Positions 2,319-62,700 of a DNA stretch of 64,000 nt are shown here, piece by piece. The notes under the pieces were generated by a model. The model was not told the DNA's origin and did not search any database. It saw only the letters and a program-made list of their open reading frames with translations. Origin of the DNA: a virus; IMG/VR virus record IMGVR_UViG_3300003629_000001; one strand, given 5' to 3'. Position 1 is the stretch's first letter. Each line of letters begins with the position of its first letter. The position numbers and the translations under genes are program-made.

Positions 2319-3122
2319 TCAATGAAACTGAAAATTTCGCGTCATGACCCCGGAAAGCCCGGTGGGAAGGCGTTCGTAGAGACGGAGAACGTACAGGTCG
2401 TGGCTGACTACGCGACGGTGGACGGTGAACACCTGAAACTCGGCTACGATAATAAAATAATGGTCGATATTCACGTTGGCGACTGGGAAAAGGCTGTGGA
2501 CGCCGAAAACGCCGTTCGTCGGGCTATCCAGTACAACGAGACGTGGACGCTCGAAGAAGGGTGTATCGACGCGTGAAGCACGAACGAAACACCGCTGACG
2601 AGCGCTACGAGAGCGTTGACGCGCTCTTTGGCCCCGACGGGCCGACTGTTCGTCAGCCCTACGGTGTCGCCTACAACGGATGGTACACGGACGCTCTCAC
2701 GATTCAGAAAGGCGGCCTTCGGAAACTGAACGTGTGGGAAGCCGTGTTCGTCACGAAGCAAAATGAGAACGTCACGGTCTACCCGGAAGGCGACGGTGAC
2801 GTGTATCTGGACGGAAAACGCGTTGGCGTGTTCCAGTACGCCTTCGCACTGGGGGAATCATGAGCGACGAACGGAATGACCCCATCGAAATGGCAATCGA
2901 AGCGCCTAAAGCGTCCATCGACGCGCTGGGGGACGAGTTCGACCCGATTGCACGGTCAAGTGACTCAATCGTGCTGGAAGAGGTGTTCGCTGACGTGGTA
3001 GAGTTCGTTATCCAAGAGGATTTGCCGACGACGGAGTGGGATTTGGGCGACCTGTCCGAAGTGGCGTAGTTGGGTACGCGTTTTCCGAAGTGCTTGTTCT
3101 CACATTACCCCTACTGTGAAGT

Positions 3123-3377
3123 ATGACAATCGACTGGCGAGCGCTCCTTCGCATTATCGACTGGTTCGTACCGTTTGAGGTGTTTACAGCGGTCTTCGTG
3201 GTGTTTGCACTGGAAAACGTCACCGACTACTACTTCTCGTTGTACGTGTCCGAAGAGGTTTCCGGCCCGATTTGGCTGGTGATTGCACTGGTCGCTATGG
3301 TGTTCCTGAACTTCGCGTCGGCGGACGAGGAAGAGCGAGAGGAACTGGAAGACGACGTGGACGACCTGACGGACTGA
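3123..3377 (+). CDS. small membrane protein (2 TM, acidic tail)
   Basis: Two hydrophobic segments followed by an Asp/Glu-rich C-terminus. Confidence 0.6.
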   Translation: MTIDWRALLRIIDWFVPFEVFTAVFVVFALENVTDYYFSLYVSEEVSGPIWLVIALVAMVFLNFASADEEEREELEDDVDDLTD

Positions 3378-3397
3378 CAGTACTCCTAATAGCAGTC

Positions 3398-3460
3398 ATT
3401 TCCCATACGGCAAAGATTTTTCAGTGTTCGGAAACTATTCTACGGTGAAGTGAACTGTAA
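3398..3460 (+). promoter_or_regulatory. promoter cassette, degenerate copy
   Basis: ATTTCCCATACGGCAAAGATTTTT upstream of ATG 3461. Confidence 0.5.
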
Positions 3461-3859
3461 ATGAGCAACAAGACCGAATTGGAACGCATAGAGGAAGAAC
3501 AGGGCAAACTGGCGGCTATCAAGCACACCATTAGCAACGGCAAAGAAGAAATCTCGGAAGACGTAGACGACATTCGTGAAGAGGTAGACGACCTGAAGAC
3601 CGAACTCAAAGGCGGTGAGATTGAGAAGGTGACGTGTCGTGCCTGTGAGCGTGAAGTGAACTCATTCGAGGTGTCTCGGTGCGAGCATTGCGGTTACGAC
3701 GCGAGTGGTCACACGACGTGGAAGTGGATTCACGCGCTACTCGCTGGTGTGTTGTGTGCTACGTTAATTGGGATTCCGCTGGCGATTCTCCCGATTCTGA
3801 AAGCACGGAAGCACGGAACGAGGGCGAGTCAGGGCGTCGTCAAGGTTCACCGCTCGTAA
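3461..3859 (+). CDS. coiled-coil + zinc-ribbon + TM protein
   Basis: CRAC...CEHC pairs followed by a hydrophobic helix. Confidence 0.65.
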   Translation: MSNKTELERIEEEQGKLAAIKHTISNGKEEISEDVDDIREEVDDLKTELKGGEIEKVTCRACEREVNSFEVSRCEHCGYDASGHTTWKWIHALLAGVLCATLIGIPLAILPILKARKHGTRASQGVVKVHRS

Positions 3860-3922
3860 TACCCCTACTGTGAGTGGAGAAGGGGTACATCAGCCGGGTT
3901 ACATTGGATTCATTCTATAGTC

Positions 3923-3974
3923 GTTCCCGTATGGGGGAAGATATTTACGTCGGGGTATTGTACCATGTACTGTC
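3923..3974 (+). promoter_or_regulatory. promoter cassette copy
   Basis: GTTCCCGTATGGGGGAAGATATTTA...TGTACCATGTACTGT upstream of GTG 3975. Confidence 0.6.
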
Positions 3975-6414: not shown

Positions 6415-7872
6415 ATGTCTGGTAACGGAGAGGGCTTCACAGACGCACAGATACAGGTTCTTAAACACGTACCAGCCACTCGGCTGGAAATCGCTGACGA
6501 ACTCGGCATATCTTCGCGGGCGGTGCGGGGGCGGATGGACGGTATCGAAGAAAACGGCGGTCGTTTTCAGCGCGACGAAAACGGCGTATGGACGTGGAAG
6601 GGTGAAGAAGACCTTGAAACCGTTCTCGAAGCCTATGGCGTCGATTACGACCCTGACGGAAAGAGCGAAGAGAATAAATTCAAACCCGGCGATTTGAGCG
6701 AGCGCGAAGCGTACCTTCTGAAAGACGTACTCCCGGCTGACAACGAAGAAATCGCTGACGAACTGAAAATCTCCGAGCGGATTGCTGATACGTATATTGC
6801 TGAACTACAGCAAGAACACAACGTCCCGATTGAGTACGACGACGTGAACGAAGCGTACTACGTGGACGACCCAACCGTCAAGCGGAAGATTGGGTCGCAC
6901 CACATGGGAACGATTACTCGGAGAGCGAACGACTGGCTGGCGGCGGTCGAAGACAAGCAGATACGACAGGCACGCTCGGTTGAACCGGTTACGGCCATGC
7001 AAGACCCCTCGCCGGGGAACGAAGACATTGTGGCGGCGTTCAGCGACCTTCACGTCGGTCAGAGCGTTGAAGACGAGACTGGTGACAAGGTGTATTCGGA
7101 GCGAGAGTGGCGTGAAGCCGTTCGAGAGTTCACCCAAAAGTGTCTCGAAATCCCCGAACGCATGGTTTCAGGCAATATTGAGTTCGACACGATACACCTA
7201 CTGCTGAACGGTGATATGGTGACGAACGAAAACATCTACAATCACCAGATAGAAGACATATCCGCATATCTCGCTGACCAGATAAATATTGCCGTAGAGG
7301 AACTGATTCAACTGATTATCACCCTCTCGGAACACTACGAGACAGTCAATGTCGTGTGTCAAGTAGGAAATCACGGCGAAATGCGTGCGTCCGGTTCCAG
7401 TCGTCAGGCGAATGCTGACCTTTTCCTTTACCGCGAACTCGAACGTATTGTCCACTACTCCGAGTACGAGAACGTGAACTTCGACGTGGGGGACGCGACC
7501 GCGTACAAGACGTTCGACCTTCGAGGTGGGGAGTGGACTGGCTTCGCAACCCACGGTCAAGACGCCTACGAACAGATTACGGGTACTTCAGCGTCCGACA
7601 GCCAAATGCAAAACTGGCTTCTCGGTCTTGAGAACGAACCGGACATTTTCTTCATGGGCCACTATCACGAATATCGGCACGCTCCGGTCAACGGCGTTCC
7701 TGCTGTTCGGATTCCCAGCCCGAAGCCCGGCGGTATCTTTGAATGGAAGATTGGGAAGATGGAAGCCCGAAAGGTTGATACCAAACTGGGGTACATTCAC
7801 GGAGTCAGCGACGACCGTGTTCAGACGTGGCAAGCAGTGGTTGACGCTAAAGACTCTGACATAATTGATTAG
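6415..7872 (+). CDS. HTH-containing calcineurin-like metallophosphoesterase
   Basis: Two HTH motifs (EIADELGIS, EIADELKIS) plus SDLH, NGD, GNHG, HG and GHYH phosphoesterase motifs. Confidence 0.85.
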   Translation: MSGNGEGFTDAQIQVLKHVPATRLEIADELGISSRAVRGRMDGIEENGGRFQRDENGVWTWKGEEDLETVLEAYGVDYDPDGKSEENKFKPGDLSEREAYLLKDVLPADNEEIADELKISERIADTYIAELQQEHNVPIEYDDVNEAYYVDDPTVKRKIGSHHMGTITRRANDWLAAVEDKQIRQARSVEPVTAMQDPSPGNEDIVAAFSDLHVGQSVEDETGDKVYSEREWREAVREFTQKCLEIPERMVSGNIEFDTIHLLLNGDMVTNENIYNHQIEDISAYLADQINIAVEELIQLIITLSEHYETVNVVCQVGNHGEMRASGSSRQANADLFLYRELERIVHYSEYENVNFDVGDATAYKTFDLRGGEWTGFATHGQDAYEQITGTSASDSQMQNWLLGLENEPDIFFMGHYHEYRHAPVNGVPAVRIPSPKPGGIFEWKIGKMEARKVDTKLGYIHGVSDDRVQTWQAVVDAKDSDIID

Positions 7873-7904
7873 TAGCGGTAACAATAATTGAATAACGTTA
7901 TAAT

Positions 7905-8185: not shown

Positions 8186-8560
8186 ATGACGACAGTTAGT
8201 AAACTCATAGAATCCATAGAGTTGGATATTGGTGGCCGTGTGAATGTTGAAGAGCCTGAACCGGACACAGAGGAAGACGAGATTCAAGGCGTTGACCCAG
8301 TTCCCGAAATGGAACAGCCGATTGAGGGAGTGAATCTGCTGGAAGAAGACTCCCTTGGCTCTTATTTGACCGTTCAAAAGCGAAGCGGGAATAACCAATA
8401 CAACTACGAATACTGTTTCCGTGTTGACGGAACCACCGCATATCTGACAACCCTGACTCGCATGGAAGACGGAAAGGATTGTGACCGCTACTGGGTTCCC
8501 GAAGAGGTACGAAATGAAATCCAGAAGCACCACCCGGACGTAGGAGTCGTGATTTACTGA
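8186..8560 (+). CDS. hypothetical protein
   Basis: Acidic ORF with TTTTAA ~26 nt upstream, consistent with a leaderless archaeal promoter. Confidence 0.6.
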   Translation: MTTVSKLIESIELDIGGRVNVEEPEPDTEEDEIQGVDPVPEMEQPIEGVNLLEEDSLGSYLTVQKRSGNNQYNYEYCFRVDGTTAYLTTLTRMEDGKDCDRYWVPEEVRNEIQKHHPDVGVVIY

Positions 8561-8969
8561 TAGGGGTACTGTAGACCGAGGGGACTGGTGTTTGGGATTT
8601 GGAAGAACGAGGATTTAATAAGGTTCGTGTGAGAGTATGACGTGTCCCCGCTGGCACACCGGGGATAGCAAGCCGACCACCTCTCCGAGTCCTGTTCGTG
8701 TTCGTCCGGCGCGGCTTGATGAACCGCGCTGGGGTGTGGCTTTTCTCCACACTTTACGAATCAGACCGATAGAAGAACGCTGTCGCCGTCATACTAACTT
8801 TTATGTGAACTGGCTTCAACAGGCGCTATTAGACCGTTCATTCCTTGTGAGAGGAAGGACGCCGGGTGTGACCCGGTGTCGGTCGCCCCTGAACGGTCAC
8901 GCGGGGTTGCCGCCCCGTCGGCCCGGAGAGCCGTGAGTGCGACCATACAGGGAAGGAACCGATTCGACA

Positions 8970-9626: not shown

Positions 9627-10102
9627 TAGAAGCAAGGGAGCCTGACGTGACGAGCGGTTGAAGAACGGGCTACTACCACAGTAGCCCTACTGTATCACTG
9701 GCAAGACTGGGCAAGAACCCCGCTGTTTCAGTAGTAGTATCGTATAGATAGCCACAGTTCGTCGGTGTATGCTTCGTTTTGTAGAATCACAACACTGTGA
9801 TTGAGTATGTTGTCGTTGTATCTTCGTTGGTACTCTATAGGAACTCTTATAACGTTATAGAATAGTGGTTGCTGTAGGCGGTGCGGTATTAATACAGTAA
9901 GAGAGTATATATTAATATACTTATACTATGTACGATTTTACTAACTCCGAGTTTTCTATACAGCACAACGAATTGAATAGCCCTAATATGAAAACATCGG
10001 TAATCGGGATACTGAACGGTGGGTTTATGCCGTTCCGTTTCCAATGTAGGGATGGACTTTGAAATGAAAAAAGACGAACCTGAACCAACGGAGTGGGACT
10101 AA

Positions 10103-11857
10103 ATGTCCACTTCAAGTTTTGACCTTGACGACTTGACCCCGGATGGGGTAGAGTCGTGGGACGACCTGTTCCCGTTCGACGGCTATCGGGAGAAACAGCG
10201 CCAAACGATGATTGCGGTCATTCAGGCGCTTCACGACCCCAGTATCGACAACGTGGTCGTAGACGCGCCAACGGGTGTGGGTAAGTCGGCTATCAACGTC
10301 GCCGCGTCCCGCTCGTTCGACAGTTCGTTCTATATTACGCCACAGAAGAGCCTTCGAGAGCAACTTCAAGACGACCCGGTGTTGTCGGCGTACTACCGGT
10401 CACTCCGCTCTCGGCGGGACTACACCTGTGGTGAGACGGGACAGGACTGTGATTCGTGCGACATTAACAAGTCCGGCAAGAAGCAGTGTTCGGATTACGA
10501 CGAGTGTACGTACTGGAACGCGAAGATGGACGCCATAGACCATGAGTGTGCTGTCCTGACATTCGCGTATCTCGTTATCGACGGGGCGCTTCCACCTACC
10601 TCGGGTGGCGAGAATCCGAAGCGTATCTCGTTCGCTGACCGAGAACTCCTAATCGTGGACGAGTGCCACGGCCTTGAGAGTCAGGTCGCCAGTCTCTTCG
10701 CTGGGTTCAAAGTGTCGCCGTGGACAGTTCCCCCGGACTGTTACCGGAATATCGCCCACGACCTTGATATGGACAATACCAGTCGTCACGGCGAGGTGTA
10801 CGACATTATGGAAACGTTGTATAACCGGTGTAACGCGTATCGGAACGAACACCGGAACAACGACGACTACGCCGACCAACTCGAAGACGCCAAGAAGTAC
10901 ATGGACAACTTCGAGTGGTTCCAGAAAGAGGTGGACGAGTGGGGCCGTGACTGGGTGGTTGACATGGACAGAACTCGCCACCCGGACAAGAACAAGAAGG
11001 TAAAATCGTTCCAAGTGAAGCCTGTGAAGGTCGATTCCTTTCTGAAGCACAAAGTGTGGCGGCGTGCCGATACCCGGCTTCTCACTACGGCTACTATGCC
11101 GTACCGAGGGAACCCCGACAGTTGGTGTCGTCGTATCGGACTTGACCCCGACCGGACGCACGTTATCAAGGTCGGTATGCCGTTCGACCCCGAGCGCCGT
11201 CCGATTCACCTTGACAGCACTGTCGCCAAAATGTCCGGCGGGGGCGACGACAACAACTGGGAAGGTATCATGACGCGACTGAACGAACTCGCAAAGCGAC
11301 ACTCCGGGGAGAACGGACTAATCCACACGGCGTCGTACAACCGTGCCGAGCGTATCTACAAGGACGCCAAGAGCGGGAAGTACCCTGAACTCAAGAGCAA
11401 CGTACTGTTCCACGACGCTGACGACGACACGGCGGCGTTTATCACGAAGTGGCAAAACAGTCAGCAGAGTATCGTCGTCTCGCCGTCCATGATGGAAGGT
11501 GTGGACTTGGTAGACGATATGTGCCGCTGGCAAGCACTCTTGAAGGTTCCGTACCCGAACATGGGGGACAGCCGGGTAGACTACCTCATGGACGCCAACA
11601 CCGGCTACAACGGCGAGGACTGGCAATGGTACAACGAGAACACCGCCCAGTCGGTGATTCAGTCAGTCGGTCGGGCTGTTCGGTCGAAGGACGACTTTGC
11701 GGACTACTACGTGCTGGACAAGTCGTTCAATAGTATCCGTAACAGCGTGGCGTTCCCCGACTGGTTCGAGGCCGCTATCACCAGCGACCCCGTGCGGAAG
11801 ACCACCAGCGAGAAGTTCGGGACGAAGAAAACCAAGGACGACCCACTGGATTTCTGA
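10103..11857 (+). CDS. DinG/XPD (Rad3)-family SF2 helicase with Fe-S cluster cysteines
   Basis: Q motif YREKQ, Walker A DAPTGVGKS, DECH, EGVD, KVPYP, QSVGRAVR; Cys cluster CGETGQDCDSC...C...C. Confidence 0.92.
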   Translation: MSTSSFDLDDLTPDGVESWDDLFPFDGYREKQRQTMIAVIQALHDPSIDNVVVDAPTGVGKSAINVAASRSFDSSFYITPQKSLREQLQDDPVLSAYYRSLRSRRDYTCGETGQDCDSCDINKSGKKQCSDYDECTYWNAKMDAIDHECAVLTFAYLVIDGALPPTSGGENPKRISFADRELLIVDECHGLESQVASLFAGFKVSPWTVPPDCYRNIAHDLDMDNTSRHGEVYDIMETLYNRCNAYRNEHRNNDDYADQLEDAKKYMDNFEWFQKEVDEWGRDWVVDMDRTRHPDKNKKVKSFQVKPVKVDSFLKHKVWRRADTRLLTTATMPYRGNPDSWCRRIGLDPDRTHVIKVGMPFDPERRPIHLDSTVAKMSGGGDDNNWEGIMTRLNELAKRHSGENGLIHTASYNRAERIYKDAKSGKYPELKSNVLFHDADDDTAAFITKWQNSQQSIVVSPSMMEGVDLVDDMCRWQALLKVPYPNMGDSRVDYLMDANTGYNGEDWQWYNENTAQSVIQSVGRAVRSKDDFADYYVLDKSFNSIRNSVAFPDWFEAAITSDPVRKTTSEKFGTKKTKDDPLDF

Positions 11858-13109
11858 ATGACTGAATACGAGTTCACTGCTGAATCGGTTCTCGAAGGCT
11901 TTGGCGACGACCTATTTTTCGCTGGGTTGCTTGCTGAAGCGGATGTGTCGCCTGAAGAGTTCGCGGCGTATCTGAACGAGGTGTTCGACCAGTCTGACCG
12001 ACAGGCGATAGCGGCTATGTTCCACGACCACGAAATCGACTTGGAAATAGGTGGTCAGGCGGAGATTCGTGAACCCTCGTCGTTCGAGGATTGGAAAGAG
12101 CAAACTGGTTGGGAACCCGAAGGAGAGCTATGAGCGACGAATTGCTCACACTCGAAGATATTCGGGAAGCGGCGGAAGCGCTTGAAACGAACAGCCCGGA
12201 TACCCAGTGGTCGTACTCGTCAGCAGAAATCGAGTTTGAGAGTGGTTCGTCTATCGAATACTATGAAGAGACGCCGGAGATTGAGTATAAGCCACCAGTA
12301 CACGAACGACGGCTCCCCGGAGAGGAACCGAACTACGAACTATTGAACGCGGTTATGCGAAACACCAACCGAAAAGTTCCGCTGTCAATCGGTGGGTGCG
12401 TTCGGATAGAGACATACATGGATTACGACCATTTCCTTCGGCTATGACCAGCACGGAAACAGCCGTCTTGGTCTATCTGTGTGTCATTTCGTATGCTCTC
12501 GGGTATCTTCGAGGGCGAATCTCGGAAGCACTACAATGAAAGAACGACTCATATCAGTCTACGACGCGGCAAGGGACGACGGCGGTGAGCGGATGTGGCC
12601 GTACATCGACTACGCTAATACCCGTATCAGCGCGACAGTGGCGGACGAGTATGTGGTCAAGGTGACTCGCCGGGACTGTCGGCCAGCCGAAAGCGAACGC
12701 TTCGACGTGAGAAACGTGACGACGAACGTCTTCCTTGACCGGGTAGCCCGGTGGCTGGTCACGGGAGAGAAATCGGCGTCTGACGGTTCTTCTGACCCGC
12801 TTGAGTGGTAGTACGGCTACCAAAGACTTATCCCCGGTCGTCCCCAATATGGGAACGAGGAAGGAGAGAAATGGAAGACCTAATGCACGCGTATGACCTT
12901 GCACAGCGCGGCGAGCGGGACACGGGCTGGATTCAGTTCTGTGGCGCTCACCTCGGCGTTGCGTCCGAAGAAAACGGAGAGGTGCGCGTTTGGAACGCCG
13001 AATCCACCGATACCGATAACACGTTCGACACGGAATCACTGACCATGAAGCAGTACATGAACGAGGTAGAGAACTTCGTTCACGACGAGATAGCGCCGAG
13101 GTTGTCGTC

Positions 13110-13547
13110 ATGAAGTTAGACCAGATAGCCCACCACCCCGAAGCACAGGTGGTCACGAAGTTCACGCACGAAGCACTCGAATGTATCGTGCTGAATATGC
13201 GTGACCGCCACTATTGCGGCTACGTCAGGACGCCGTTCGACGGCCACTACGACGAGTTCCAGAGCGCTATCGACATTCACGGTGGGTTGACTTACGGTAT
13301 CGACCCGGACGGTTGGGTCGGCTTCGACACCGCTCATGCGTTCGACGTTCCCTACGACGTGGACGGGAACGCGCTGACGAACAATCCGCTGGCAACCATG
13401 CGAGCGAAGCGCGGCTTTGGTGACGAACACGATATTTCGTGGAAGCCCGCTGACGTGGTGGAAGAGACGAAGTGTCTCGCGGAACAGATAGCCGAACTCG
13501 CTCCGAAGGGAGAGATAGCCGAAGACGCTGAAATCATCGACGGGTAG
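13110..13547 (+). CDS. conserved phage protein (CGYV...HGGLTY...GFDTAH type)
   Basis: Motif set widespread in tailed phages; function unknown. Confidence 0.6.
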   Translation: MKLDQIAHHPEAQVVTKFTHEALECIVLNMRDRHYCGYVRTPFDGHYDEFQSAIDIHGGLTYGIDPDGWVGFDTAHAFDVPYDVDGNALTNNPLATMRAKRGFGDEHDISWKPADVVEETKCLAEQIAELAPKGEIAEDAEIIDG

Positions 13548-15637: not shown

Positions 15638-15640
15638 TCC

Positions 15641-15705
15641 ATTCCCTATACGGGAAAGACTTAAGTCCGCCCGGACGCTACTATACTGTACGGAGAGGGA
15701 CTGAA
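15641..15705 (+). promoter_or_regulatory. conserved promoter cassette copy
   Basis: ATTCCCTATACGGGAAAGA-CTTAAG...TACTATACTGTACGGAGAGGGACTGAA-ATG(15706). Confidence 0.75.
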
Positions 15706-50751: not shown

Positions 50752-51734
50752 GACTCATAATCACCAACAACAACGACGAGGAACTGGGCGAGATACGGTC
50801 GAATTTCGAGTTCGAGGCTGATATTCCGTTCGAGGATAAGGAACGGATTCGAGCGCTCATGCGTTCAGCGAAGAAATTCGCTATGGACGTAGGGCCAGTT
50901 GAACGCTCCGGGGGCGCGGATGAACGCGAACTAATTACCCCCGGCGAAGAGGTCGTGGAGTTCGAGACGGACGAAGCACTTCCACGCGTCAAGGTCGCTA
51001 TTGACCGAATGACTCGGTATCATGCTGTCCTCGAAGAGACGGAAGAGCGTGAAGCAATCAAGGCTGTTGACGCTCCGTTCAACGCCCCGGATGGAAAGGA
51101 AGTACACGAAGGGCCGCCCGGATTCTTCTACTACAACGTCAGTAAGGATACTGAAGAATCAGGGGATGGTGAGGTGTTGGAAGTTCGGGATTACTACCGA
51201 GTGTGGGTCAACGACCAAGATAGCGTTCCTGACGACAGCATGGCGCTCTACGACGAAGAGGGCGACCCGGCTGGAAATCACTGGTACTACGAAGTACCGT
51301 TCGAGACGAAGACGCGAATCAATCTTTCCGAGCATGAAGTTGACCCGTCGAATGTGATAGAAAAGGACGCTGACGTTGAACTCTCACCTGACGAACTGAA
51401 CGAGTACGGTATTTGTAAGTCGGATAACGAACGGATACAGGAAGCCAGTGAAGCCGTTGAAAAAGGTGAGCCGGTGTGGGGCGATACTCATTCGGTGAGT
51501 GGGGCTGTTCTCAAGTCAGTAGAGTGTCCGTCGGTGTTGCTCTGTCTCTATAAGTTGTTTCACAATGCTGGCGACGAGTACACCCAATATCTCCCACCGA
51601 TTCAAACTGAACTCAATCACCGTGGCGTCAAGGCGATAGATAAAATTACACGGAAGAAGCGAGATTTCGGTCAAGCGACCGACGACGTGACGCTCGAAAA
51701 GAGCGGCGATTGGCTTGAGTTCGAGCGAGAGTAG
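50748..51734 (+). CDS. modular hypothetical protein of the array
   Basis: ATGA-coupled to the peptidase gene; contains APDGKEVHEGPPGFFYY. Confidence 0.6.
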   Translation: MRLIITNNNDEELGEIRSNFEFEADIPFEDKERIRALMRSAKKFAMDVGPVERSGGADERELITPGEEVVEFETDEALPRVKVAIDRMTRYHAVLEETEEREAIKAVDAPFNAPDGKEVHEGPPGFFYYNVSKDTEESGDGEVLEVRDYYRVWVNDQDSVPDDSMALYDEEGDPAGNHWYYEVPFETKTRINLSEHEVDPSNVIEKDADVELSPDELNEYGICKSDNERIQEASEAVEKGEPVWGDTHSVSGAVLKSVECPSVLLCLYKLFHNAGDEYTQYLPPIQTELNHRGVKAIDKITRKKRDFGQATDDVTLEKSGDWLEFERE

Positions 51735-51804
51735 TTTAACCGGTTCTTCCCGAAAGGTCTTACAGTAGGGGTATCAACAGTATTAACAAGAGGCCACTAT
51801 CCCC

Positions 51805-52607: not shown

Positions 52608-55600
52608 ATGAGCCTGACCAAAGACCTTGCGGACGCACTCGCTGGTACGGTAGCCAAACAACACCCGGCTTTTCGGAGTAGTACCAACTGGCTTCCGTAT
52701 CGTGGCCCGCGAGGTGGGGAAGGGTACATCAACACCTACACCGGCGACGTAGTGTACGGAAGTGACCGGCCCGGTGGCGGGTGGGACAGTGACGGCGAGA
52801 TTGAGGTAGACGAGTCGTTCCGTGCCGCCCCTGACGGCTACGAGTGGGAGCGCCCACCGATGAACTACGACGTGAAAGACGAGATTGACGAAGCCAACCC
52901 GGACAACGTAGACGGCTTCCTCGAAGCGAAGTTCAGTGGCGACCAAGTTATCTACGAAGACGGTCAAGGTGAAGAGGCCCCGCACAGTTGGGGTCGCGTC
53001 ACTGGTGCGCGTGTGGATACGTACACCAATCTCGGTGGTCATGAAGTGACGGGTGTCGTTCTCGAACTTGAATCGGGTGACGACGTGCCATTAAATCGTG
53101 TCTTGAAGCACGTCAATACGTCACAAGACCCGAAATACGAAGCGTGGCAACTGGCCGACGACAATCCCCACGAAGACGATTTGGAAGACGTAAGCGAGAA
53201 AGTCTATCATTCGTTCTCTCACGACGAGTTCGAGTGGAAAGAGTACGCTGACTGGCGAAATGACGCCAAAACGCTCCCTGTTCTTTCTGAACATGGTGCT
53301 GACGATTTGTGGAAAGCCATGAGCGCGTACTTCGACCGTGAGTCCATGAACGACCTACGGGCGGATTTAGCCAGTTGGAAGAGCGACAGTGACCGTGGCA
53401 CTGGCCGTTACTCCGACATTGCGAAAGAGGTGTTCGAGATTGACGCGGTGTCTCGGGATAATCGCTACGGGGAAGAATGGGATACAAGCAACGAGGAAGA
53501 CTTTAAACGGGCGGTAGAAATTCTCTCTGACGCATCTCGTCGGTTTTACGAAGACCAGTACGAGAGCGACGACCTGTTCCGTGGAATCTCCCGACACGGC
53601 TTTCGGAGTCTCGTCAAGGGGTGGCTGGAAAACCCCGGCGCTGACGAGTTCGAGGTGGAACACAGGGCGCTCGCCAACTACTCCGCCGACCACCGGGTCG
53701 CCCGTGATTGGGCTGGGAATACGGTTGTCATTCAGCCGGATATTGACCCGGAAGACATAGTGCTGGCTATCGACGGCTTGAATTTCTCCGGTGTCCACAA
53801 CACGGAATCCGAGGTGCATATGCGGGGCGACCGGATTACCCTCAAGCCTGACGACGTGAAACTCAAGACACGCCGAGATACACAGGGTCGAACATCATGG
53901 CCGGAACGAAAGGCTGGGTTAAGCGAACCAGCCGAGAACTGGTCAGCGAACGACGCGGAGAACTTCAGTAGGGCTATCAGTCTAATCTACGACGACGAAA
54001 CGCCTGACGAGGAAACCGCGCTTCGCTTCCTACGTATCGCCAAGGCTCACGAAGACCACATTGAAGACAAACTAAACAGCGACCGCTTCAATTTCGAGCG
54101 CGACAGGTTCTTTACGACGGGAACCGCTGGCCCCGGTGAAGCCCACGGCGAAGTGATTGAGTGGGAAAACGAGTATCTGGACTTACTCGGTCGTATCGAA
54201 GCGGAACACGGCCTCAATCTATCCAGCGTAGAGAAGGCCGAGAATCCGCCCGGTTCGCCTGACGAGACGCCGGTTGTAGACTTGACCGAGGATTGGTTCT
54301 TGTCCCCGGAACACCGTGACGACCCGGAGAGAGCCGAGAAACAGGTACAGAACGTCATGGGCGAGTGGGTTCCGTACCAAGGCCCCCGAGGTGGCGAAGG
54401 CTGGCAACGGATTAGCGACCAAGAGGTAGTGTATCAAGACGACCCGCCCGGTGACGTAGTGGAAGGCGTCGAAGAGAACTTTTGGGAGCGCTACGGTGAA
54501 GGCGACGAGTCCCAAGACACCAGCGGATACTATGACGCTGACGAGTGGGACGACGCTTTTGAGGGCATGAATATTGCCGCTCCGTCTGACGTTCCCGAGG
54601 GGGCTGAAATCTACTATATCTCGTCGGTCGGTAATCACCACGAAGGACGCGTTGTGGGCTATGAATACGGTGAGAACATCGAAGGCGCTGACCCAACGCC
54701 CGCGTATCTCAAAGTCGTTGGTGACGACGGTTACGAAGCCTCTGTCACGGCTGACCAGATTCAAGAGATTACGGATATGCCGCATGAGGCCGAAGTACCC
54801 GAGTTCGAGTGGGATACAGATATTCCACCGATTAACGAACTACAGGAAGGCGCTGACGTGCTGTACGAAGGCGAGAACGGCATTCGTCGTGTTGGCGAAT
54901 ACGAACGTCCGACGTTCGTTCAGACGGAAGAAGGGACGTTTGGTGGTGTTGTTCTCGAAGACGGAACCGAGATTCGGCTACAAGATATGGTGGCCGTGGA
55001 CGAAGGGCCGGTTCCGCTTGAACCCCGAGAAGACCCCTTCGAGTTCGAGTCGGTGGTCAACGAGGGCGATTTCCGTGGATTCCGCGCTCCTGACGAGACG
55101 TGGGACAACCTACTCGAATTTACCCCGTTTGACGGCCTTGGCGAAGTTCCGCTGGGTGCGACGGTGGAGTTCGATACTCCGAAACTGAACGGAACGATTG
55201 AGGGTGAAGTGACTGGGTACATCGACTACGACGCGTCGATAGGCGAAACGAACTCGCTACGCGTCCAGACCGAAGACGATTACGTGGGAGAAACGACAGT
55301 AGGGCCGAGTAATTTCGTTCGATTCATTGGCCCTGAAGGCGACCAAGATTTATCGCTGGAAGAGTATCTGTCCAATCCGTTTGCACACGCTCACAAGGTC
55401 GAAGGCTCTCGGGAAGCCGGTATCACTGGCGGGAACACGACTGGGGAGAAAATGAAAATCGCTACCATGCCGGACGACTCGCTAATCTTTGCGACTCCGG
55501 TGGAAGCCTACAATCATATCACAACGGGCGTGGTTGATAGTGCGGCTGAAGCACGCGAGAACAATCTGAATAGCCCTATTATGATTGACCACCTCGGCGG

Positions 55601-56741
55601 GGGAGCGTGTAAAACACGAATCGTGGAAGGGCCGGACGGAGGTGAGTATATCGCTAAAGAGGGTATCGAAGGCGACGACTTGAGAAGCCGCCAGTGGTCG
55701 ATAGACGAAAACGACGACGCTGAACTTATGGACTCCCTCGCTCGCACTTCGGCGGCGGCGTTCTTTGTTGGCAATCAAGACCTTCACTCTCACAATATCC
55801 GGGTCAACTTCGATACACAGGAAGCGACTGTAATCGACCACGACGCCGCTGGTGGGAGTCATTTTGGTAGTTTCATGGACGTTAACAGAGTTGTCAACGA
55901 CCCGCTTAGTACCTCTCAAGTCGAAAACGAGATATACGATATTGCGCGGGATTATATGAGAGGCGACCTTGACGTTCCCGAGGAACTGAAAGGAACGAAC
56001 CACGAATCCTACTTCAAGGACGCCATAGACAAACTGGCGAACGACGAAAGCCATTCAGACCTATTTGAACCGTGGGGCGGCGACCCGCACAGTCTTCCGC
56101 GTCATGCGGATAGCATGGACGACTTTCAGGAAGGGCAAGAAGTGACAGTTCTGACGAGTGACGGACACGTTCGCACAGGAGAACTCACCCAGTTCTATCA
56201 AGGGACTTGGTATGGTGAGACGGACGACAACTACGAAATTTCGTTCGATATGCCGCACCACGTTCTCTCGTCCGAAGAGCCAAAAATTCCGATTGAACCG
56301 ACCGAAGAATCGGCGGCGCTCATGGACGCACTGGCTGACCGAGAGGATTCATACGACTCCTTAACCGACCTTGAACCCGGTATGGGTATCACGATTAATC
56401 AGGGGTTTAGCGACGAAGAGGTGCTGGTTGAAGAGGTGAAAACGGACGGCCCGGTGACTCAAGTAGAAGTTCGTCCGACTGACGGTGGCGACCCATTCCA
56501 CGTCAATCAGTGGGACGACGTAGTTCAGGTTGGACGGGAACGGAACTGGAATGGTGAGTTGGACGACCTAAACACTGGTGAAGAGATTCGGGTCGAAGAC
56601 GAAGACGGTGAAGAGATTAGCGGGACGTTCATGGGCTACGACGCTGACAGCGGAGAGGTAGAAATCCAAGACGCACCGGGACGGATTGTCACGGTGGACG
56701 CGCCACGTAACGTCCAGCGGTTGACGGGTGATTCAGAATGA
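52608..56741 (+). CDS. tagged polyvalent protein 4: tag + ART + tag + SH3-like domains + kinase + SH3-like domains
   Basis: Tags at 52689 and 54366; LFRG...NYSAD...ESE; NQDLHSHNI...VIDHD at 55779. Confidence 0.75.
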   Translation: MSLTKDLADALAGTVAKQHPAFRSSTNWLPYRGPRGGEGYINTYTGDVVYGSDRPGGGWDSDGEIEVDESFRAAPDGYEWERPPMNYDVKDEIDEANPDNVDGFLEAKFSGDQVIYEDGQGEEAPHSWGRVTGARVDTYTNLGGHEVTGVVLELESGDDVPLNRVLKHVNTSQDPKYEAWQLADDNPHEDDLEDVSEKVYHSFSHDEFEWKEYADWRNDAKTLPVLSEHGADDLWKAMSAYFDRESMNDLRADLASWKSDSDRGTGRYSDIAKEVFEIDAVSRDNRYGEEWDTSNEEDFKRAVEILSDASRRFYEDQYESDDLFRGISRHGFRSLVKGWLENPGADEFEVEHRALANYSADHRVARDWAGNTVVIQPDIDPEDIVLAIDGLNFSGVHNTESEVHMRGDRITLKPDDVKLKTRRDTQGRTSWPERKAGLSEPAENWSANDAENFSRAISLIYDDETPDEETALRFLRIAKAHEDHIEDKLNSDRFNFERDRFFTTGTAGPGEAHGEVIEWENEYLDLLGRIEAEHGLNLSSVEKAENPPGSPDETPVVDLTEDWFLSPEHRDDPERAEKQVQNVMGEWVPYQGPRGGEGWQRISDQEVVYQDDPPGDVVEGVEENFWERYGEGDESQDTSGYYDADEWDDAFEGMNIAAPSDVPEGAEIYYISSVGNHHEGRVVGYEYGENIEGADPTPAYLKVVGDDGYEASVTADQIQEITDMPHEAEVPEFEWDTDIPPINELQEGADVLYEGENGIRRVGEYERPTFVQTEEGTFGGVVLEDGTEIRLQDMVAVDEGPVPLEPREDPFEFESVVNEGDFRGFRAPDETWDNLLEFTPFDGLGEVPLGATVEFDTPKLNGTIEGEVTGYIDYDASIGETNSLRVQTEDDYVGETTVGPSNFVRFIGPEGDQDLSLEEYLSNPFAHAHKVEGSREAGITGGNTTGEKMKIATMPDDSLIFATPVEAYNHITTGVVDSAAEARENNLNSPIMIDHLGGGACKTRIVEGPDGGEYIAKEGIEGDDLRSRQWSIDENDDAELMDSLARTSAAAFFVGNQDLHSHNIRVNFDTQEATVIDHDAAGGSHFGSFMDVNRVVNDPLSTSQVENEIYDIARDYMRGDLDVPEELKGTNHESYFKDAIDKLANDESHSDLFEPWGGDPHSLPRHADSMDDFQEGQEVTVLTSDGHVRTGELTQFYQGTWYGETDDNYEISFDMPHHVLSSEEPKIPIEPTEESAALMDALADREDSYDSLTDLEPGMGITINQGFSDEEVLVEEVKTDGPVTQVEVRPTDGGDPFHVNQWDDVVQVGRERNWNGELDDLNTGEEIRVEDEDGEEISGTFMGYDADSGEVEIQDAPGRIVTVDAPRNVQRLTGDSE

Positions 56742-59700
56742 CAGTAGTTGTATATGAACTGAACGACGACGCGGAGTACGAGGAACTGGGTAGCCATACC
56801 GACCAAGAGGCCGTGGAGAACGACGACCTACTGGATATTTTTCCTGAACAGGTGTGGCAAGACCACTCCGACGAATGGCTCTCCGAGCGGATTGACGGCC
56901 CTTACGTCATGGCCGCAATTCAGGACGAAGACTCCGAGACGACAGAGAAAATCAGTATGTGGACACCCTACGTCGGCCCGAACGGTGGCGAGGGCTACCA
57001 ACATATGCTGACTGACGAAGTTCGTTACGTGGACGAGGAACCCACTGACGACGAAGCACCCGGCAATGACGTTGACGTAGACGAACCCGAGAGCGGTGAA
57101 CTGAACGAAATGACCGGGATTTCGGACGCGTCGTATATTGAAGACAATCTTCCGGTCACGGCGACGTGGGAGAATGACGACGGTGAATCATTCGTTGGTC
57201 AAATCGAAGAGGTGGATTACGGCGGCTTTGACGAGAAGTTTGTAATTGCCGCTACCAACGGACGGCGCTACGAGGTGAATGGTGACGATTTGACCGGGTA
57301 TATCGAACCCACGCCGGAATACAACCCGGAAAGTGACGAGGAAGACGGACGGATTCGGGACGGATTCGAGCGGATAAAGGAAAAACTTGGCGAGGGTGTG
57401 ATTCCACCGCGTCCAACTCCCAATATGGGTAATGGTGGCTCTCGTCCCGAACAGAGCGATTTCCGACAAATCGCGTCGGAAGACGACGCCGAGAAACTAC
57501 AGCAGATTATCGACACTGGCGACACTGGGAATATTCAGGTCGGAATCGAAGCCGTCGGTGACGGAGTAGACTACGGCCCGTGGGACGCTGATACGGATAA
57601 TCTCAATTACTTCGACGGCGGTCAGTTCACGAACATCGACGTGGAAATGCCGGTCGAAGATTTCCTTGCCACACAAACGGATATGTTGTCGTCTGACCGG
57701 AACCATCCACAAGAAGCCTACGAGTCGTTCCACCGAGTTCGGACTGACGACGTAGAAGAGTACGCCGAGGTGTTACAGAACGAACCGGGTGAAATGCCCA
57801 TGCCGTACATTGAGTTCGGTCGCAACGGCAATATGCGGAACTCACAGGAAGGCCGACACCGCGCTCTCGCGGCGCGTATGGCTGGGTTAGATACCATGCC
57901 GGTTCGGTTCGTTCTAAACCCCGACCGCGACGGAAAAGGCGCTGAAGACCGTGTTGACTGGGGTCAGGATTTGAGTAAGCCGGTGGAGAAACGCACAAAG
58001 TGGCGTCCATATCTCGGCCCGCGTGGTGGTGAAGGCTGGATTAAGCCGTTCAGTTTCACCGACGACAAAATTGTCTACGACGAAGAACCACCGGGTGAAG
58101 TATCGCCGGAGTACAGCGAGGATTACTGGCACGACCGCCCGTCTCCGGTCAACGAAGATATTGTTAATTTGGTGGATTCGCACCTCGAAGGCGTTCGAGC
58201 GCGTCCGTACAAGTTGGACGAACCGACAGCGGATTTCTTCGAGGAAGGACTGGAAGCCGGGTATCACCCGAACGCCGTTTCCGAAGCCGCTGAATGGAAA
58301 CTGAAAAGCATGGAAAAGGAGATTGGGGACGGTGGGCGACTCGAAGAGAACGACGTTCAGAAGGTACTCCGAGACGCCGCTACCCAGTTCCTTGACCGCC
58401 AAACCGAGCAAGAGATAGAGATAGAAGGTGGCAAACGAGGTGGTGGGGTTATCTCTCTCGGTGAAATTGACAACAACTTCAAACGAGACTGGTGGGATAA
58501 CTTCGAGTCTGAAATAGGCTACACCGACGACCAAATGACGAACGAGAAGCCTGCTTACAGTGCTATTCGCAACTGGTCTATCACCAGTAGTATGTTCAGT
58601 CAGTCTACAGCGCCACTAATCAAAGCGGCCATGCGAGAGAGCGACAACGATTTCATTCCGGTCAACGGCGAAGAGGTGCGTGAGACAGACGTAACCGACC
58701 GAGAAATCGAACACGTTCTCGAATACAAAGAGGCCATGACTGAACTGTACCGGAGCGTCTACGGTGACACGGTTCCGTGTTTCCGTGGCATTGACGGTCA
58801 GAGTAGTCAAATCGACGGAATGCGCGAAGATATACAGGAAGGCAAGGGTATCGAACTTCCTGAAGCCACCCTCTCTTCGTGGGCGACGGAACCCGGAACC
58901 GCCATGCGATTCGCCGGGAGCATCCACACTGACGGCTACAGCGAAGGTGGTGTCGTGATTCGTCAAGAGGTTCCGGTTGAACAACTATTCGTGACTGGCG
59001 ACACTCACCCCGGCCTTCTTAATAACGAGAACGAACTTGTTGTTAACGCGCCGGAACCCGAGACGCGCTACGAACCCGACAACCTGATTCTCCCGAGTGA
59101 GACGACAGCACTCGAACAGGCGGTGTGGGCGGCGGAACGTGCTAATAGGGATACTGACGTGAGCGAGGAAGCCGCGAAGGCTGTCCAGCGAGCGCTCCTT
59201 TCCAAACAGGAAATGAACCAGTACGCTTCAATCGCAATCGAAAACTACGATTGGTTCCGTCAGACTGTCGGTGAGCAAACCCAACCCGACATTAAGTCGA
59301 AAGAGTGGATTCCGTATGAAGGGCCACGGGGCGGTGAAGGGTGGCAAAATACGGAAGACCGAGACGATATTCGATATGGGCTGGAAGACCCGCCCGGTGA
59401 AGTGGCCGAGGGGTACGAAGACATGGCCGAAGACTGGGGGGCGGGAGAAGACGCTGTAGAAATCCCCGAGAAGTTCGAGGGAGAGTACGCCCCGGAAGAC
59501 ATTACGCCGATTCCCGGCGACCCTGCTGAATGGGGTGACGAGTTCCCAATTAGTGAAGGACAGACACTACTCGGTCAAAATTGGGAATGGGATATAGAAA
59601 ATCTCTGGTTCCAAGGTAGCGATACACACGTTCCTGAACCTCGAATGGAATTAGCAATTCCGACTGGTGTTAGTCACAAATTTGGTTACGTATCCGATTC

Positions 59701-62700
59701 CGTGAAGTTACAGGGTATGGAACCCGGTTGGTTCAAGAATCCGGCTATCCCCAGCAAGCAAAACAAGCAAGAGTTCGTCGGAGTCGTCGGAGAACCTGAA
59801 CCACGAGATATGAGTTTCAACCCGACTGGTGAAGCGGCGAATGCTTCGTTTGATTTAGACGAAGCGGCTGAAAGAATGAGTCAGGAGATTCGTGACCGCA
59901 ATTCGTGGGAAAACAAAAAGGCTGGAATTTACGCGGCTGAACTAATAGAAGAGCATGACCCGAGTTACGAAACGCTACTCGCTATCACTCGTTACGGGCT
60001 GGAATCAAATGGTCAGAGTATAAACGAAGACCGCGATATAGACGACGCTCAAGAAATTGTCTTGGACGGTATCGACCAACACCTTGACAATGAAGCACCT
60101 GACCACCCCACGCTCAAGGGCAAACTGTCGTTAAGTCACGCTGACCCCGAATTGACCGAAGATTTCATGAGTCGTATGACACCCGATACCCGAGAGACTG
60201 TCAATACGGCTATGGGTGAATGGATTCGTGGTCAGGGGAGTATGGTGGACGAGTACACACTTCCAATTTACCGACTGGCCGCTCACACCTACGAGAACGA
60301 TTTCTACCCGACGCGTGGTGACGTAGGGAAACTCATTGCGGAAGCCGACGACGTGGAAGCCGCTGACAGTCTCGAAGTTCGTCAAGAGAGGCTGGAACGC
60401 TATCGTCAAAAGACCGTAGAGACGTTCCGTGAAGTGTTCGGTGATACCGTTCCGGTGTTTCGTGGCTACGACCCCGGTGAACAATCCAAAGGTAAAGAAG
60501 CACGGGAAGCGCTACAGGCTGAAGACGCCCCGTCAGAGATAGAGATTCGTAATGGTGTGGCGAACTCATGGTCTACAAACCCGACCGTCGCATTTCAGTT
60601 TTCGACGTGGAATACCGAAGATTACCCCGGTATTGTTGTCCGCCAAGAACTCCCCGTTGAACAAATATTCGGGTCGTCTGATACCACTACCAGTGGTCGG
60701 TCTGACGAAGCGGAAATCGTTGCTGGCAATCCTGAAGAGTACACTAACCACAGCCGCGACGACGTATTCCTTCCCGAAGAGTTCGACCCGATTGAGCAAA
60801 TGCGGTGGGCGCTTTCGGGTATCGAAAATGACGCCAGTGAAGAGGAAGAGAAGGCTGACGGGGAAACGCTATCACTTGACTGGGAACTCGAATCGGTTGA
60901 CTGGCTACGTCGTTACCGGAAGATGGAAGACGCACTCACGAAAGAAAACTGGACTCCTATAGACGTAGGCGACCAGAGAGGCTACCAGCACGTCGTCAGC
61001 GGAGAGACGATAGTATCCAAGGCTGGTATCCCGTTCAGCAACACGGCGCGTCAGGCGGGCCACACGCCGCTGTCAGCGGTGGTTATGGACTCCGACGCAC
61101 TGGGGAAAGAGTGGGTTCCATATCACGGCCCACGGGGCGGTGAAGGGTGGCGGAATACAACGACCGAGAATATCCGCTACGGACTGGACGAAGCACCGCG
61201 CCCAGCCGAGAACGACCCCGACGAACTCACCGAAGAGAACATCGAAGAGGCTGATATTCAACAGTCGTTCGGCCTCATGCAAACTACAGCCAACGACTTG
61301 GTAGAAGGTGAGAAACTACACTTCGAGGTTCAAGGCCACCCCTACGAAACCCGCGTTCAGGAAGTGACCGACGACGCGATTCACGCGATAGACACCGAGA
61401 CGCACCGCGAGTTCGAGATTCCGACCGACGAGCGAGGAATGGCCGAAAGCGGGCTAACACTGGCTTCGCCACAAGCGGTATTCTTCGGCCACGGTATCGC
61501 TGGGTCGGAGTCGTCGTGGCTACCCGAGGAAGACGAACCGAGTCAGATAGAACTCGAAGCCGAAGCGCTTCGTTCCGCCGCGTCCACCGACGGATTCGGT
61601 GATACCAGTTACATTGAAGGCTTCGCCGCACGGGCGAGTGAACTCGGTGCTGGACGTGACGAGATTACCAACGCGATTCACGGCGCTCTCGAAGAACACC
61701 CCGCACTGAACACGGATTTGGCCGACGAGATTTACGAGAACGGTCAGCGGCTATTGGAAATCGAAGAGTCGCTGACGGACAAGTCACTCGCTCGCTCCTA
61801 TCCCATTACCCCTATCAGGACTATGCGGAAGGAGTGGATTCCGTACCGTGGCCCACAGGACGGAGAGGGCTGGCAAAACGTCAACAATCCCGACGACATT
61901 CGATACGGACTCGAAGACCCGCCCGGTGAAGTGGCTGAAGGCTACGAAGAACAGGCGGAAGACTGGGGGCCGAGTAGCGACGAGGAACCCGACCGAGTTC
62001 AGGGCGCGACCCTCGTAGACTACAACATTCCGGGGAGCGACAAGGACATTCAAGTCCCGAAAAACTTCACGGCTGACGACTTGAAGAACACCATTCGGCG
62101 GTTCCGAGACGACAACGAAGGCGACCTACTCACGGAACTGGCGAACGTCGTTCAAATGCAAAACGACGGCAACCTAAACGACAAGATGGACGTGCTTCAT
62201 GGCACGGCTGAAGTGCTGGGGAACCACCCGGAGATTATCGACCAGTACAACGACCTGCTACACGAAGAGATAGCCGATACTCCAAACGCCAACTTCGACG
62301 TACCATTCGGCTTCGACGGTGTGGACGTTCACAATATGCTGGAAGACACCTTTGGCCCCCACAGTGAGATTGTGGGTGAACTCGAAGATATGGTTCTGTT
62401 CGGGGACGTGGACGAAGAAAAAGCCGACAACTGGATTACCGCCGCCGAAGGCTGGATTCGTAACTACGGCGACCGGAAAATGGCGGACAAGTTCAAGGAT
62501 ACCATAGCCGACGCGGAGTTGGCGAATCCGTTCTCAAACACCGACGAGTACGCCGCACAGGAAGAGATTAGCGACGACCTAAACCCAGCAAAAGCGTCCC
62601 GAGTTGTGCCTATTTCGGATACTGAAGCGTCTACGGGTATCAGCGCTGACAGTATGTTCATAGCCGAGTACGACGACGGACACCGAGCATTCGTCACCAA

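Follow-up and report, generated by a model that had tools for sequence, protein, structure and literature searches.

The stretch of viral DNA analysed here, IMG/VR virus record IMGVR_UViG_3300003629_000001 (64,000 nucleotides, hereafter the window), carries along its whole length a 14-bp dyad site whose commonest core is the 8-mer TACCCCTA, and it is this site that we describe; all statements concern the 64-kb window and related contigs. The genes of the window include those for the large terminase subunit (38000-39457), a portal, ribonucleotide reductase, ThyX, dCTP deaminase, an XPD-type helicase, a MoxR-type ATPase with a von Willebrand (VWA) partner and several homing-type nucleases, and the nucleases encoded are of the helix-turn-helix (HTH)-HNH, HNH, LAGLIDADG, ERCC4 and HTH-metallophosphoesterase kinds. 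Because the terminase shares 55% identity with its counterparts in the haloarchaeal siphoviruses HCTV-1, HCTV-5 and HVTV-1, and because no match to the window longer than ~150 bp was found at the DNA level in the phage collection, the window is, as judged from these comparisons, that of a haloarchaeal tailed virus outside the described genera. A provirus search of cellular genomes with the terminase as query returned distant bacterial prophages only, and a provirus and host search with the ribonucleotide reductase returned nothing; the dCTP deaminase query led to methanogens, which served only as an entry point for sampling a phylum of cellular genomes. Rfam and tRNA scans of the window gave no match. 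A curated gene list, which is 94% coding, was used for site placement.

TACCCCTA occurs 15 times in the window, eight times on the plus strand and seven on the minus strand, in agreement, in number and exact position, with an earlier note on this DNA that had claimed at least 15 exact copies, while dinucleotide-shuffled sequences have 0.52 copies on average and never more than 3. Under an order-3 Markov model no other 8-mer of the window is as strongly over-represented (15 vs 0.49), and next in rank comes its one-base variant TAGCCCTA, which has the same flanks (10 vs 0.35); the one-mismatch copies that the same note had placed at 9682, 21762, 59146 and 63504 are also real. Coding sequence was controlled by a synonymous-codon shuffle, which keeps the protein, and by a codon-order shuffle, which keeps codon usage, and TA[C/G]CCCTA, which covers both words, is found there 15 times vs 0.8 after either shuffle. 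Because the excess withstands both Markov and codon controls, the enrichment persists under the very corrections on which the earlier note had made it depend.

The word had been described as non-palindromic, but its flanks are two-fold symmetric: in the aligned copies Y-R-D precedes the first TA and is mirrored by H-Y-R after the second. The 8-mer therefore belongs to a 14-bp dyad, YRDTA-N4-TAHYR, with a centre that is usually N-CC-N, and 48 strict copies of this dyad are present in 64 kb against 3.5 in dinucleotide shuffles (maximum 9), while a less strict 12-bp form is present 69 times where 13 copies are expected. When the spacer was varied from 0 to 8 bp, the counts were 4, 7, 1, 3, 48, 1, 7, 9 and 3, so that only the 4-bp spacer is enriched, and a reversed, non-complemented control pattern was found 6 times. 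The centre is most often CCCC (14 copies), followed by GCCC (6), CCCG (4), TCCC (4) and CCCA (3), and the middle step is CC (or GG) in 38 of 48 centres; read by orientation, 25 centres are C-rich on the top strand, 21 are G-rich and 2 are neutral. A weaker preference for T at -6 and A at +6 extends the dyad to ~20 bp. The two arms have matching base composition without covariation, the frequency of Watson-Crick pairs at positions ±1 to ±8 being that expected of independent columns. Since the arms do not co-vary, two separately read half-sites are favoured over a hairpin, and a hairpin, cruciform or structured-RNA repeat, for which there was also no Rfam match, was rejected. The site looks like two degenerate half-sites that would be read by a dimer. 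The sites, including copies with relaxed flanks, are given below with their strand and, in brackets, the position of the 8-mer; CDS stands for coding sequence.

1216-1229, plus: dyad site, centre CCCG; CDS 1025-1408
3103-3116, plus: dyad site, exact TACCCCTA (3106); 6 nt upstream of ATG at 3123
3378-3391, plus: dyad site, centre CTCC; begins right after stop of 3123-3377
3857-3870, plus: dyad site, exact TACCCCTA (3860); first three bases are the TAA stop of 3461-3859
6786-6799, strand not assigned: dyad site, centre CGTA; CDS 6415-7872
7190-7203, plus: dyad site, centre CACC; CDS 6415-7872
7870-7883, minus: dyad site, centre CCGC; first three bases are the TAG stop of 6415-7872
8558-8571, minus: dyad site, exact TACCCCTA (8561); first three bases are the TGA stop of 8186-8560
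9679-9692, plus: dyad site, TAGCCCTA (9682); perfect 6-bp arms, intergenic
9729-9742, minus: dyad site, centre CTAC; intergenic, 50 nt from site 9679
9975-9988, plus: TAGCCCTA (9978), relaxed flanks; ATG overlaps last base
11731-11744, plus: dyad site, centre TCCG; helicase CDS 10103-11857
12616-12629, plus: dyad site, centre CCCG; CDS 12479-12811
12809-12822, strand not assigned: dyad site, centre CGGC; CDS 12805-13113
13008-13021, plus: dyad site, centre CCGA; CDS 12805-13113
13860-13873, plus: dyad site, centre ACCG; first three bases are the TGA stop of 13554-13862
15268-15281, minus: dyad site, TAGCCCTA (15271); HTH-HNH CDS 15029-15637
16482-16495, minus: dyad site, centre CCCA; CDS 16474-16725
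17144-17157, plus: TAGCCCTA (17147), relaxed flanks; CDS 16771-17295
19780-19793, plus: dyad site, exact TACCCCTA (19783); after TTATAA box, 10 nt upstream of ATG at 19804
20113-20126, plus: dyad site, centre CGCC; CDS 19804-20202
21759-21772, plus: dyad site, TAGCCCTA (21762); between ATATAA box and ATG at 21779
22273-22286, plus: dyad site, exact TACCCCTA (22276); end of CDS 21779-22306
22950-22963, plus: TAGCCCTA (22953), relaxed flanks; CDS 22663-23157
24719-24732, plus: dyad site, centre CCCG; ribonucleotide reductase CDS
27878-27891, minus: dyad site, exact TACCCCTA (27881)
28413-28426, plus: dyad site, exact TACCCCTA (28416); dCTP deaminase CDS 27994-28503
29898-29911, minus: dyad site, centre TCCA; intergenic
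30341-30354, minus: dyad site, exact TACCCCTA (30344); last base is the A of the ATG of 29982-30341 (minus)
31233-31246, minus: dyad site, centre TCCC; DUF3307 CDS (minus)
32702-32715, plus: dyad site, centre GCCA; overlaps ATG of ThyX gene 31905-32711 (minus)
33030-33043, plus: dyad site, centre TCCC; CDS 32737-33114
33652-33665, plus: dyad site, centre CCCG; LAGLIDADG endonuclease CDS
34513-34526, minus: exact TACCCCTA (34516), relaxed flanks; convergent junction of 33796-34518 (plus) and 34528-35238 (minus)
35260-35273, minus: dyad site, centre ACAA; CDS 35231-35893 (minus)
37871-37884, plus: dyad site, centre TGCC; divergent intergenic region, 10 nt before ATG of 35893-37860 (minus)
37934-37947, plus: dyad site, exact TACCCCTA (37937); 52 nt upstream of large-terminase ATG at 38000
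39771-39784, minus: dyad site, centre TCCC; HNH CDS 39460-40023
43121-43134, minus: dyad site, exact TACCCCTA (43124); just after DUF192 domain
45158-45171, minus: dyad site, TAGCCCTA (45161); CDS 43479-45518
45793-45806, plus: dyad site, exact TACCCCTA (45796); linker, 231 nt upstream of WIPY tag
47184-47197, plus: dyad site, TAGCCCTA (47187); CDS 45515-48202
47536-47549, minus: dyad site, centre TCCG; CDS 45515-48202
48414-48427, minus: dyad site, exact TACCCCTA (48417); 18 nt upstream of WVPY tag
51140-51153, minus: dyad site, centre TCCT; CDS 50748-51734
51763-51776, minus: dyad site, exact TACCCCTA (51766); intergenic between 51734 and 51805
53966-53979, minus: dyad site, TAGCCCTA (53969); CDS 52608-56741
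55568-55581, plus: TAGCCCTA (55571), relaxed flanks; CDS 52608-56741
56378-56391, minus: dyad site, centre CCCA; CDS 52608-56741
57421-57434, minus: dyad site, centre CCCA; CDS 56738-63319
59143-59156, minus: dyad site (the earlier 59146 variant), centre TCCC; 162 nt upstream of WIPY tag
60679-60692, plus: dyad site, centre CCAC; CDS 56738-63319
61804-61817, plus: dyad site, exact TACCCCTA (61807); 30 nt upstream of WIPY tag

Most of the strict sites, 33 of 48 (69%), lie fully within coding sequence, and the other 15, which touch a start or stop codon or are intergenic, fall in 6% of the bases, an enrichment of ~5-fold per base. The placement at gene boundaries that had been noticed for the 8-mers at 3106, 3860, 8561, 19783, 30344, 34516, 37937 and 51766 holds on fresh gene calls. 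At 3857, 7870, 8558, 13860 and 21759 the stop codon of the upstream gene forms the first three bases of the site, at 30341, 32702 and 9975 a start codon overlaps its last base, sites 19780 and 21759 are situated between a TATA-like box and a start codon, and the divergent region before the terminase gene is flanked by sites 37871 and 37934. Inside genes the sites come at a codon cost. Twenty-seven of the 33 begin at codon position 3, the sole phase that puts a codon boundary inside each TA step, and minority codons are used in them, namely GAT (19% of Asp), CCT (14% of Pro) and AGG (5% of Arg), with 13% of the AGG codons of the window falling in sites that span 0.9% of its codons. After protein- or codon-usage-preserving shuffles of the coding sequence, 5-7 dyads are expected where 33 are found, and 0.8-1.7 CC-centred ones where 27 are found. 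The in-gene sites occur in both orientations and encode differing peptides, and similar short peptides recur at some of them (SDRGT twice, TPI three times). The codon-preserving shuffles, the phase preference, the rare codons and the differing peptides together support the earlier suggestion that selection acts on the DNA itself.

The sites are also spread evenly. Successive 8-kb segments contain 7, 9, 5, 6, 7, 5, 4 and 5 of them, which corresponds to approximately one site per 1.3 kb (~0.75 per kb), and the coefficient of variation of the gaps is 0.71, an evenness reached by 0.7% of random placements. In the long multi-domain genes that follow the portal, nine WIPYxGPxGGEGW-type tags (43551-63565) each have a dyad site 18-432 nt upstream (P ~1e-4), and the sites at 45796, 48417 and 61807, which had been assigned to inter-module linkers, are indeed in linker-like peptide just upstream of this repeated module. 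The simplest reading is that the sites settle where the protein is least constrained. A related contig, L139 (505-950), is 97% identical to the window up to 43121 and there contains an extra 430-nt segment that starts exactly at the dyad site 43121-43134 and encodes a further tag-like module (WVEFQGPEGGTGW); the centre and the right arm of the site differ across the junction.

The closest viral contigs have a terminase identity of 66%; five of them are mutually ~99% identical, and another, L001, is 84% identical to these in DNA. In these relatives the dyad is present 19 times in 24 kb and 15 times in 20 kb, against 0-1 for the control, and is thus kept at the same density as in the window, a conservation for which the earlier note had asked. 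The preferred centre, however, is CCCG rather than CCCC in the relatives, and the arms follow YRATA more strictly. A comparison of L003, one of the near-identical contigs, with L001 shows several sites at matching positions, of which one is unchanged, one differs in the centre only (ACCC to GCCC) and one has five substitutions with the consensus kept, and further sites exist in one lineage only. Relatives retain the site upstream of the terminase gene, and three short contigs from metagenomes, with 90-97% identity to the window, still have the sites that they cover, again with changes in the centre. Three viruses with complete genomes, HCTV-1, HVTV-1 and one of 104 kb, are on the other hand at background, with 6, 2 and 4 sites vs 3, 7 and 0 for controls, and among 401 genomes sampled evenly from the phylum of the methanogen entry genome, which should include haloarchaea under the GTDB classification, the strict site with a CCCC centre occurs at most 7 times per genome, like the control. 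Because the dyad word is kept in relatives and is at background level in HCTV-1, HVTV-1 and the 401 sampled genomes, it is, on the sequences compared, a private feature of one virus clade. Helicase and reductase queries yielded no further members of the clade. The AT-rich contigs L031-L035 and L044, in which the count of the loose pattern is raised, were set aside as a different system in which the CC centre is absent.

We favour, with moderate confidence, the view that the dyad is a docking site of a dimeric sequence-specific DNA-binding protein, as predicted from its architecture. In this model each half-site, a degenerate YRDTA, would be contacted by one monomer, and a G/C-rich centre would be favoured for its shape or for contacts made there. 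We infer binding by a protein, encoding of that reader by the virus and a purpose for the binding, while the site, its dyad architecture, its excess and even spread, its in-gene codon cost and its restriction to and conservation in the clade are observed directly. Because a site is met every ~1.3 kb along the whole chromosome, the reader would decorate or mark the viral DNA in its entirety rather than control a few genes, and because the sampled cellular genomes are not enriched in the site, it would find viral DNA almost exclusively. The reader could plausibly organise, condense or segregate the genome as ParB, KorB or Noc do, or discriminate viral from host DNA, and it would also modulate transcription where sites sit between a TATA-like box and a start codon or overlap the start codon. 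The even coverage and the mostly in-gene location argue for a genome-wide role, be it marking, organising, segregating or protecting, over a purely promoter-centred one. Of what the earlier note had proposed, selection on the DNA and a binding site for a genome-organising or regulatory protein fit the evidence, and the asymmetric 8-mer has given way to the dyad.

Several observations weigh against this view. So strong a preference for an asymmetric centre is unusual in the site of a simple homodimer, and the orientation of the centre is regionally biased, with C-rich centres on the top strand in 16 of 22 sites to the left of 29 kb vs 4 of 15 to the right of 39 kb (P = 0.008 for a split chosen post hoc). 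The GC skew keeps its sign between 1-29000 and 39000-64000. The evidence reaches over 64 kb of viral DNA, and Pfam scans of 75 open reading frames in the window found no ParB, KorB or ParA family. The HTH protein of 33796-34518, one of those that had been put forward for binding experiments, adjoins the large terminase in relatives and has counterparts in the motif-free HCTV-1, HCTV-5 and HVTV-1; it was rejected as the specific reader and is probably the small terminase subunit. The HTH-metallophosphoesterase of 6415-7872, likewise put forward earlier, was rejected because homologues exist on two viral contigs with 1 and 0 sites. For the candidate readers 3461-3859 and 28567-29178, the second of which had also been put forward earlier, a search of the viral contigs found no relatives. 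Among other HTH proteins, the HTH-HNH protein of 15029-15637 is of a family widespread in haloviruses, and that of 30492-30788, the last of the four put forward earlier, gives weak DUF134 and sigma-factor-like matches in Pfam and PHROG scans.

Dispersed operators are familiar from the C1 operators of phage P1, the conserved inverted repeats of phiC31 and the stoperators of Cluster A mycobacteriophages, and the sites could in principle form an ordinary operator network in which a viral repressor or activator controls many promoters and the in-gene sites act as roadblocks. The ~5-fold density at gene boundaries, the sites between TATA-like boxes and start codons (19780, 21759) or overlapping start codons (30341, 32702, 9975), and the pair in the divergent region before the large terminase (37871, 37934), together with the retention of the terminase-upstream site in relatives, would agree with such a network. 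We nevertheless regard it as unlikely, since 69% of the sites are well inside genes at a cost in codons, the spread is even over all functional modules with widely variable distances to start codons, centres of both orientations occur in a single 26-kb block of genes on one strand, and a separate, better promoter-like repeat occupies other intergenic regions. Quite unlikely, in our estimation, is the use of the sites as targets of a site-specific nuclease, nickase or recombinase, either for programmed interruptions, of which the single-strand interruptions of phage T5 and Pseudomonas phage tf are examples, or as break points for the exchange of gene and domain modules between co-infecting relatives. 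Two half-sites around four central bases resemble the targets of dimeric nucleases, several nucleases are encoded in the window, every WIPYxGPxGGEGW module has a site at most 432 nt upstream (P ~1e-4), and the 430-nt extra module of L139 starts exactly at site 43121. A tendency of sites to settle in unconstrained linkers would, however, account equally well for their link with the modules. Four further replacement break points, revealed by comparison of L003 with the near-identical L005, are 20-90 nt off the sites, no site marks the ends of the HNH and gene-42181 insertions, and the nuclease families concerned are also widespread among haloviruses without the motif. The L003 and L005 break points do not support the idea that recombination junctions fall exactly at sites, the junction in L139 being a single coincidence.

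It is doubtful, and slightly more so than the nuclease explanation, that the word is a self-recognition tag for a moving machine, such as a helicase-nuclease, a packaging motor or a replication or priming factor, by which, in the way of Chi or uptake sequences, viral DNA would be told from that of the host. The uptake sequences of Haemophilus and Neisseria have a similar density and even spacing and are mostly in genes in both orientations, which is what is seen here at ~0.75 sites per kb; moreover, the site is not enriched in the sampled cellular genomes, ribonucleotide reductase, ThyX and dCTP deaminase are typical of viruses that degrade host DNA, and the regional bias of the centre is the one observation that would suit a moving reader. 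Chi, KOPS and uptake sequences are, however, asymmetric words read on one strand, and because the arms are symmetric and the length of the spacer is strictly fixed here, a static dimer on duplex DNA is favoured over a moving reader. The two-fold symmetry of the arms and the lack of overall polarity (25/21/2), despite the regional bias, speak against the Chi-like or priming signal that had been considered earlier, and archaea are not known to have RecBCD, which counts against a Chi-like tag as well. Recognition of the dyad by an enzyme that modifies DNA, for example by methylation or base exchange, is very improbable. The interrupted palindrome with its G-rich centre has the form of a type II recognition site, and HVTV-1 DNA carries 7-deazaguanine, but HVTV-1 itself is without the dyad site, the Pfam scans of the 75 open reading frames found no methyltransferase, DpdA, Que or base-exchange family, and recognition sites are normally avoided or neutral, not 14-fold enriched and even. 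It is scarcely credible that the excess arises incidentally from base composition, codon usage, peptide repeats or a repeat that forms hairpins, an origin to which the recurrence of SDRGT and TPI at some sites might point; this was refuted because the excess persists when dinucleotides, order-3 Markov statistics, synonymous codons or codon order are controlled for, roughly one site in three is outside coding sequence, the in-gene sites occur in both orientations with differing peptides, and the arms do not co-vary.

The nearest described case is the 17-bp dyad repeat of the Cluster O mycobacteriophages (Corndog), TGTTCGG-N3-CCGAACA, of which 34 copies have invariant 7-bp arms and a biased 3-bp centre in either orientation (PMC4351075). 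Approximately one-third of these copies are in genes and two-thirds are intergenic or near gene starts, crowding one end of the genome, and the repeat is conserved in the clade, has no obvious tie to promoters and is of unknown function, although a dimeric DNA-binding protein was predicted by the authors; stoperators are also discussed in that paper (PMC4351075). Short inverted arms, a short biased centre in either orientation, tens of copies in a siphovirus genome and conservation in the clade are common to both systems, as are a partly in-gene location and the lack of an obvious tie to promoters: in the window the inverted arms are at a fixed spacing (48 copies vs 1-9 for other spacers and 6 for the reversed pattern), and tens of genome-wide copies are kept in relatives. 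The sequences are unrelated, however, and the arms here are degenerate and 5 bp long rather than invariant and 7 bp long. The distribution also differs, in that 33 of 48 sites are inside coding sequence and evenly spread rather than mostly intergenic or near gene starts, and the host is archaeal rather than bacterial.

The OB operators of KorB in plasmid RK2, ParB-parS and the centromere sites of the N15 prophage are dispersed palindromes of 13-16 bp bound by dimers, which organise or segregate DNA and repress nearby promoters, and the replicons concerned carry 4-12 sites. The 14-bp dyad falls within this size range and is similarly scattered over a replicon, but its density, about one site per kb, is in contrast with 4-12 sites per replicon, and the Pfam scans of the 75 open reading frames in the window found no ParB, KorB or ParA family. 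The stoperators of Cluster A mycobacteriophages are 13-14-bp words present in many copies, including some away from promoters, that are bound by one phage protein and are asymmetric and oriented with transcription. The many copies of one word of 13-14 bp across a phage genome, partly away from promoters, are shared with the present case, whereas the arms here are symmetric and the all-plus block of 40-64 kb has 4 centres one way and 11 the other. Cellular genomes contain asymmetric words, the DNA uptake sequences (USS, DUS) and Chi, which are read during DNA uptake or by RecBCD. The dyad is like them in its density near one per kb, its even spread and its location mostly in genes in permissive frames, but over-representation in the cellular genome of the species that reads the word was not found among the 401 sampled genomes of one archaeal phylum, and the asymmetric polar word typical of Chi and KOPS contrasts with the dyad arms, the 25 vs 21 centres and a GC skew without a flip. 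A literature search for the 8-mer found only primers and unrelated text, and we came across no account of a dispersed whole-genome dyad word from an archaeal virus; the paper on the Hardycor1 halovirus concerns motif avoidance and not this word (PMC7911831).

Whole-genome dispersed dyad words are thus known in phages, for example in those of Cluster O, but none has a known function, and the present case is unusually clean, with a strict spacer, a measurable codon cost, an even spread, retention in the clade with shifted centres, and absence from sister clades and sampled cellular genomes. So short and sharply defined a word makes the question open to direct test, and a comparison of motif-bearing with motif-free clades should show the purpose of the system. 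One possibility, which we entertain only tentatively, is that the virus writes an evenly spaced address label, absent from host genomes, by which a viral protein tells viral from host DNA. If so, the label might serve to spare viral DNA during the breakdown of host DNA, or to gather, condense or partition viral genomes, and related halovirus lineages would carry other private words, which would constitute a general, undescribed layer of genome organisation in archaeal tailed viruses.

Other repeated words were seen in the window and in more distant viruses. The 10-bp perfect palindrome ATAACGTTAT is found at 7892, 9849 and 47853 (3 vs 0.03 expected), twice in long intergenic regions, and the relative L003 carries an analogous palindrome, ATAAGCTTAT; the flanks of ATAACGTTAT do not fit the dyad, and it was rejected as a member of the site family. 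A second intergenic repeat, unrelated to the dyad, has full copies at 15638-15705 and 17633-17702 that are ~80% identical, and partial copies near 3398-3460, 3925-3974, 13900-13937, 16740-16770 and 26120-26170. It is promoter-like and ~60 nt long, with TTCATyCC..TATA followed by GGAAAGACTTAAG, CCGCCCGGA, CTACTATA and GTACGGAGAG just before the start codon. In L007, an IMG/VR contig with 56% terminase identity and 65% G+C, another word, GAACCCTCAG, occurs 15 times in 13 kb, with 13 copies on one strand and ten within 1.7 kb, and may be an iteron cluster or a coding repeat. In L016, a 104-kb complete viral genome with 53% terminase identity, TATAAATCTAT occurs four times in 21 kb on a single strand and is probably a lineage-specific promoter word.

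Comparison with relatives also brought to light differences in gene content. The HNH gene 39460-40023, between the large terminase and portal genes, is by this comparison a recently mobile homing-type gene, because it is missing from L138, a metagenome relative of 90% identity in which the terminase and portal genes abut. The 194-codon gene 42181-42765 after the portal is absent from L137 and L139, which are 91-97% identical to the window and have ~25 nt in its stead. The LAGLIDADG endonuclease gene 33116-33799, just upstream of the terminase-associated HTH gene, has no counterpart in L003, L005 or L001, where the distance from ThyX to the HTH gene is only ~230 bp. Between that HTH gene and the large terminase, a block consisting of a 655-codon baseplate-like gene on the minus strand (35893-37860, phrog_20556) and two more minus-strand genes is present in the window and absent in relatives.

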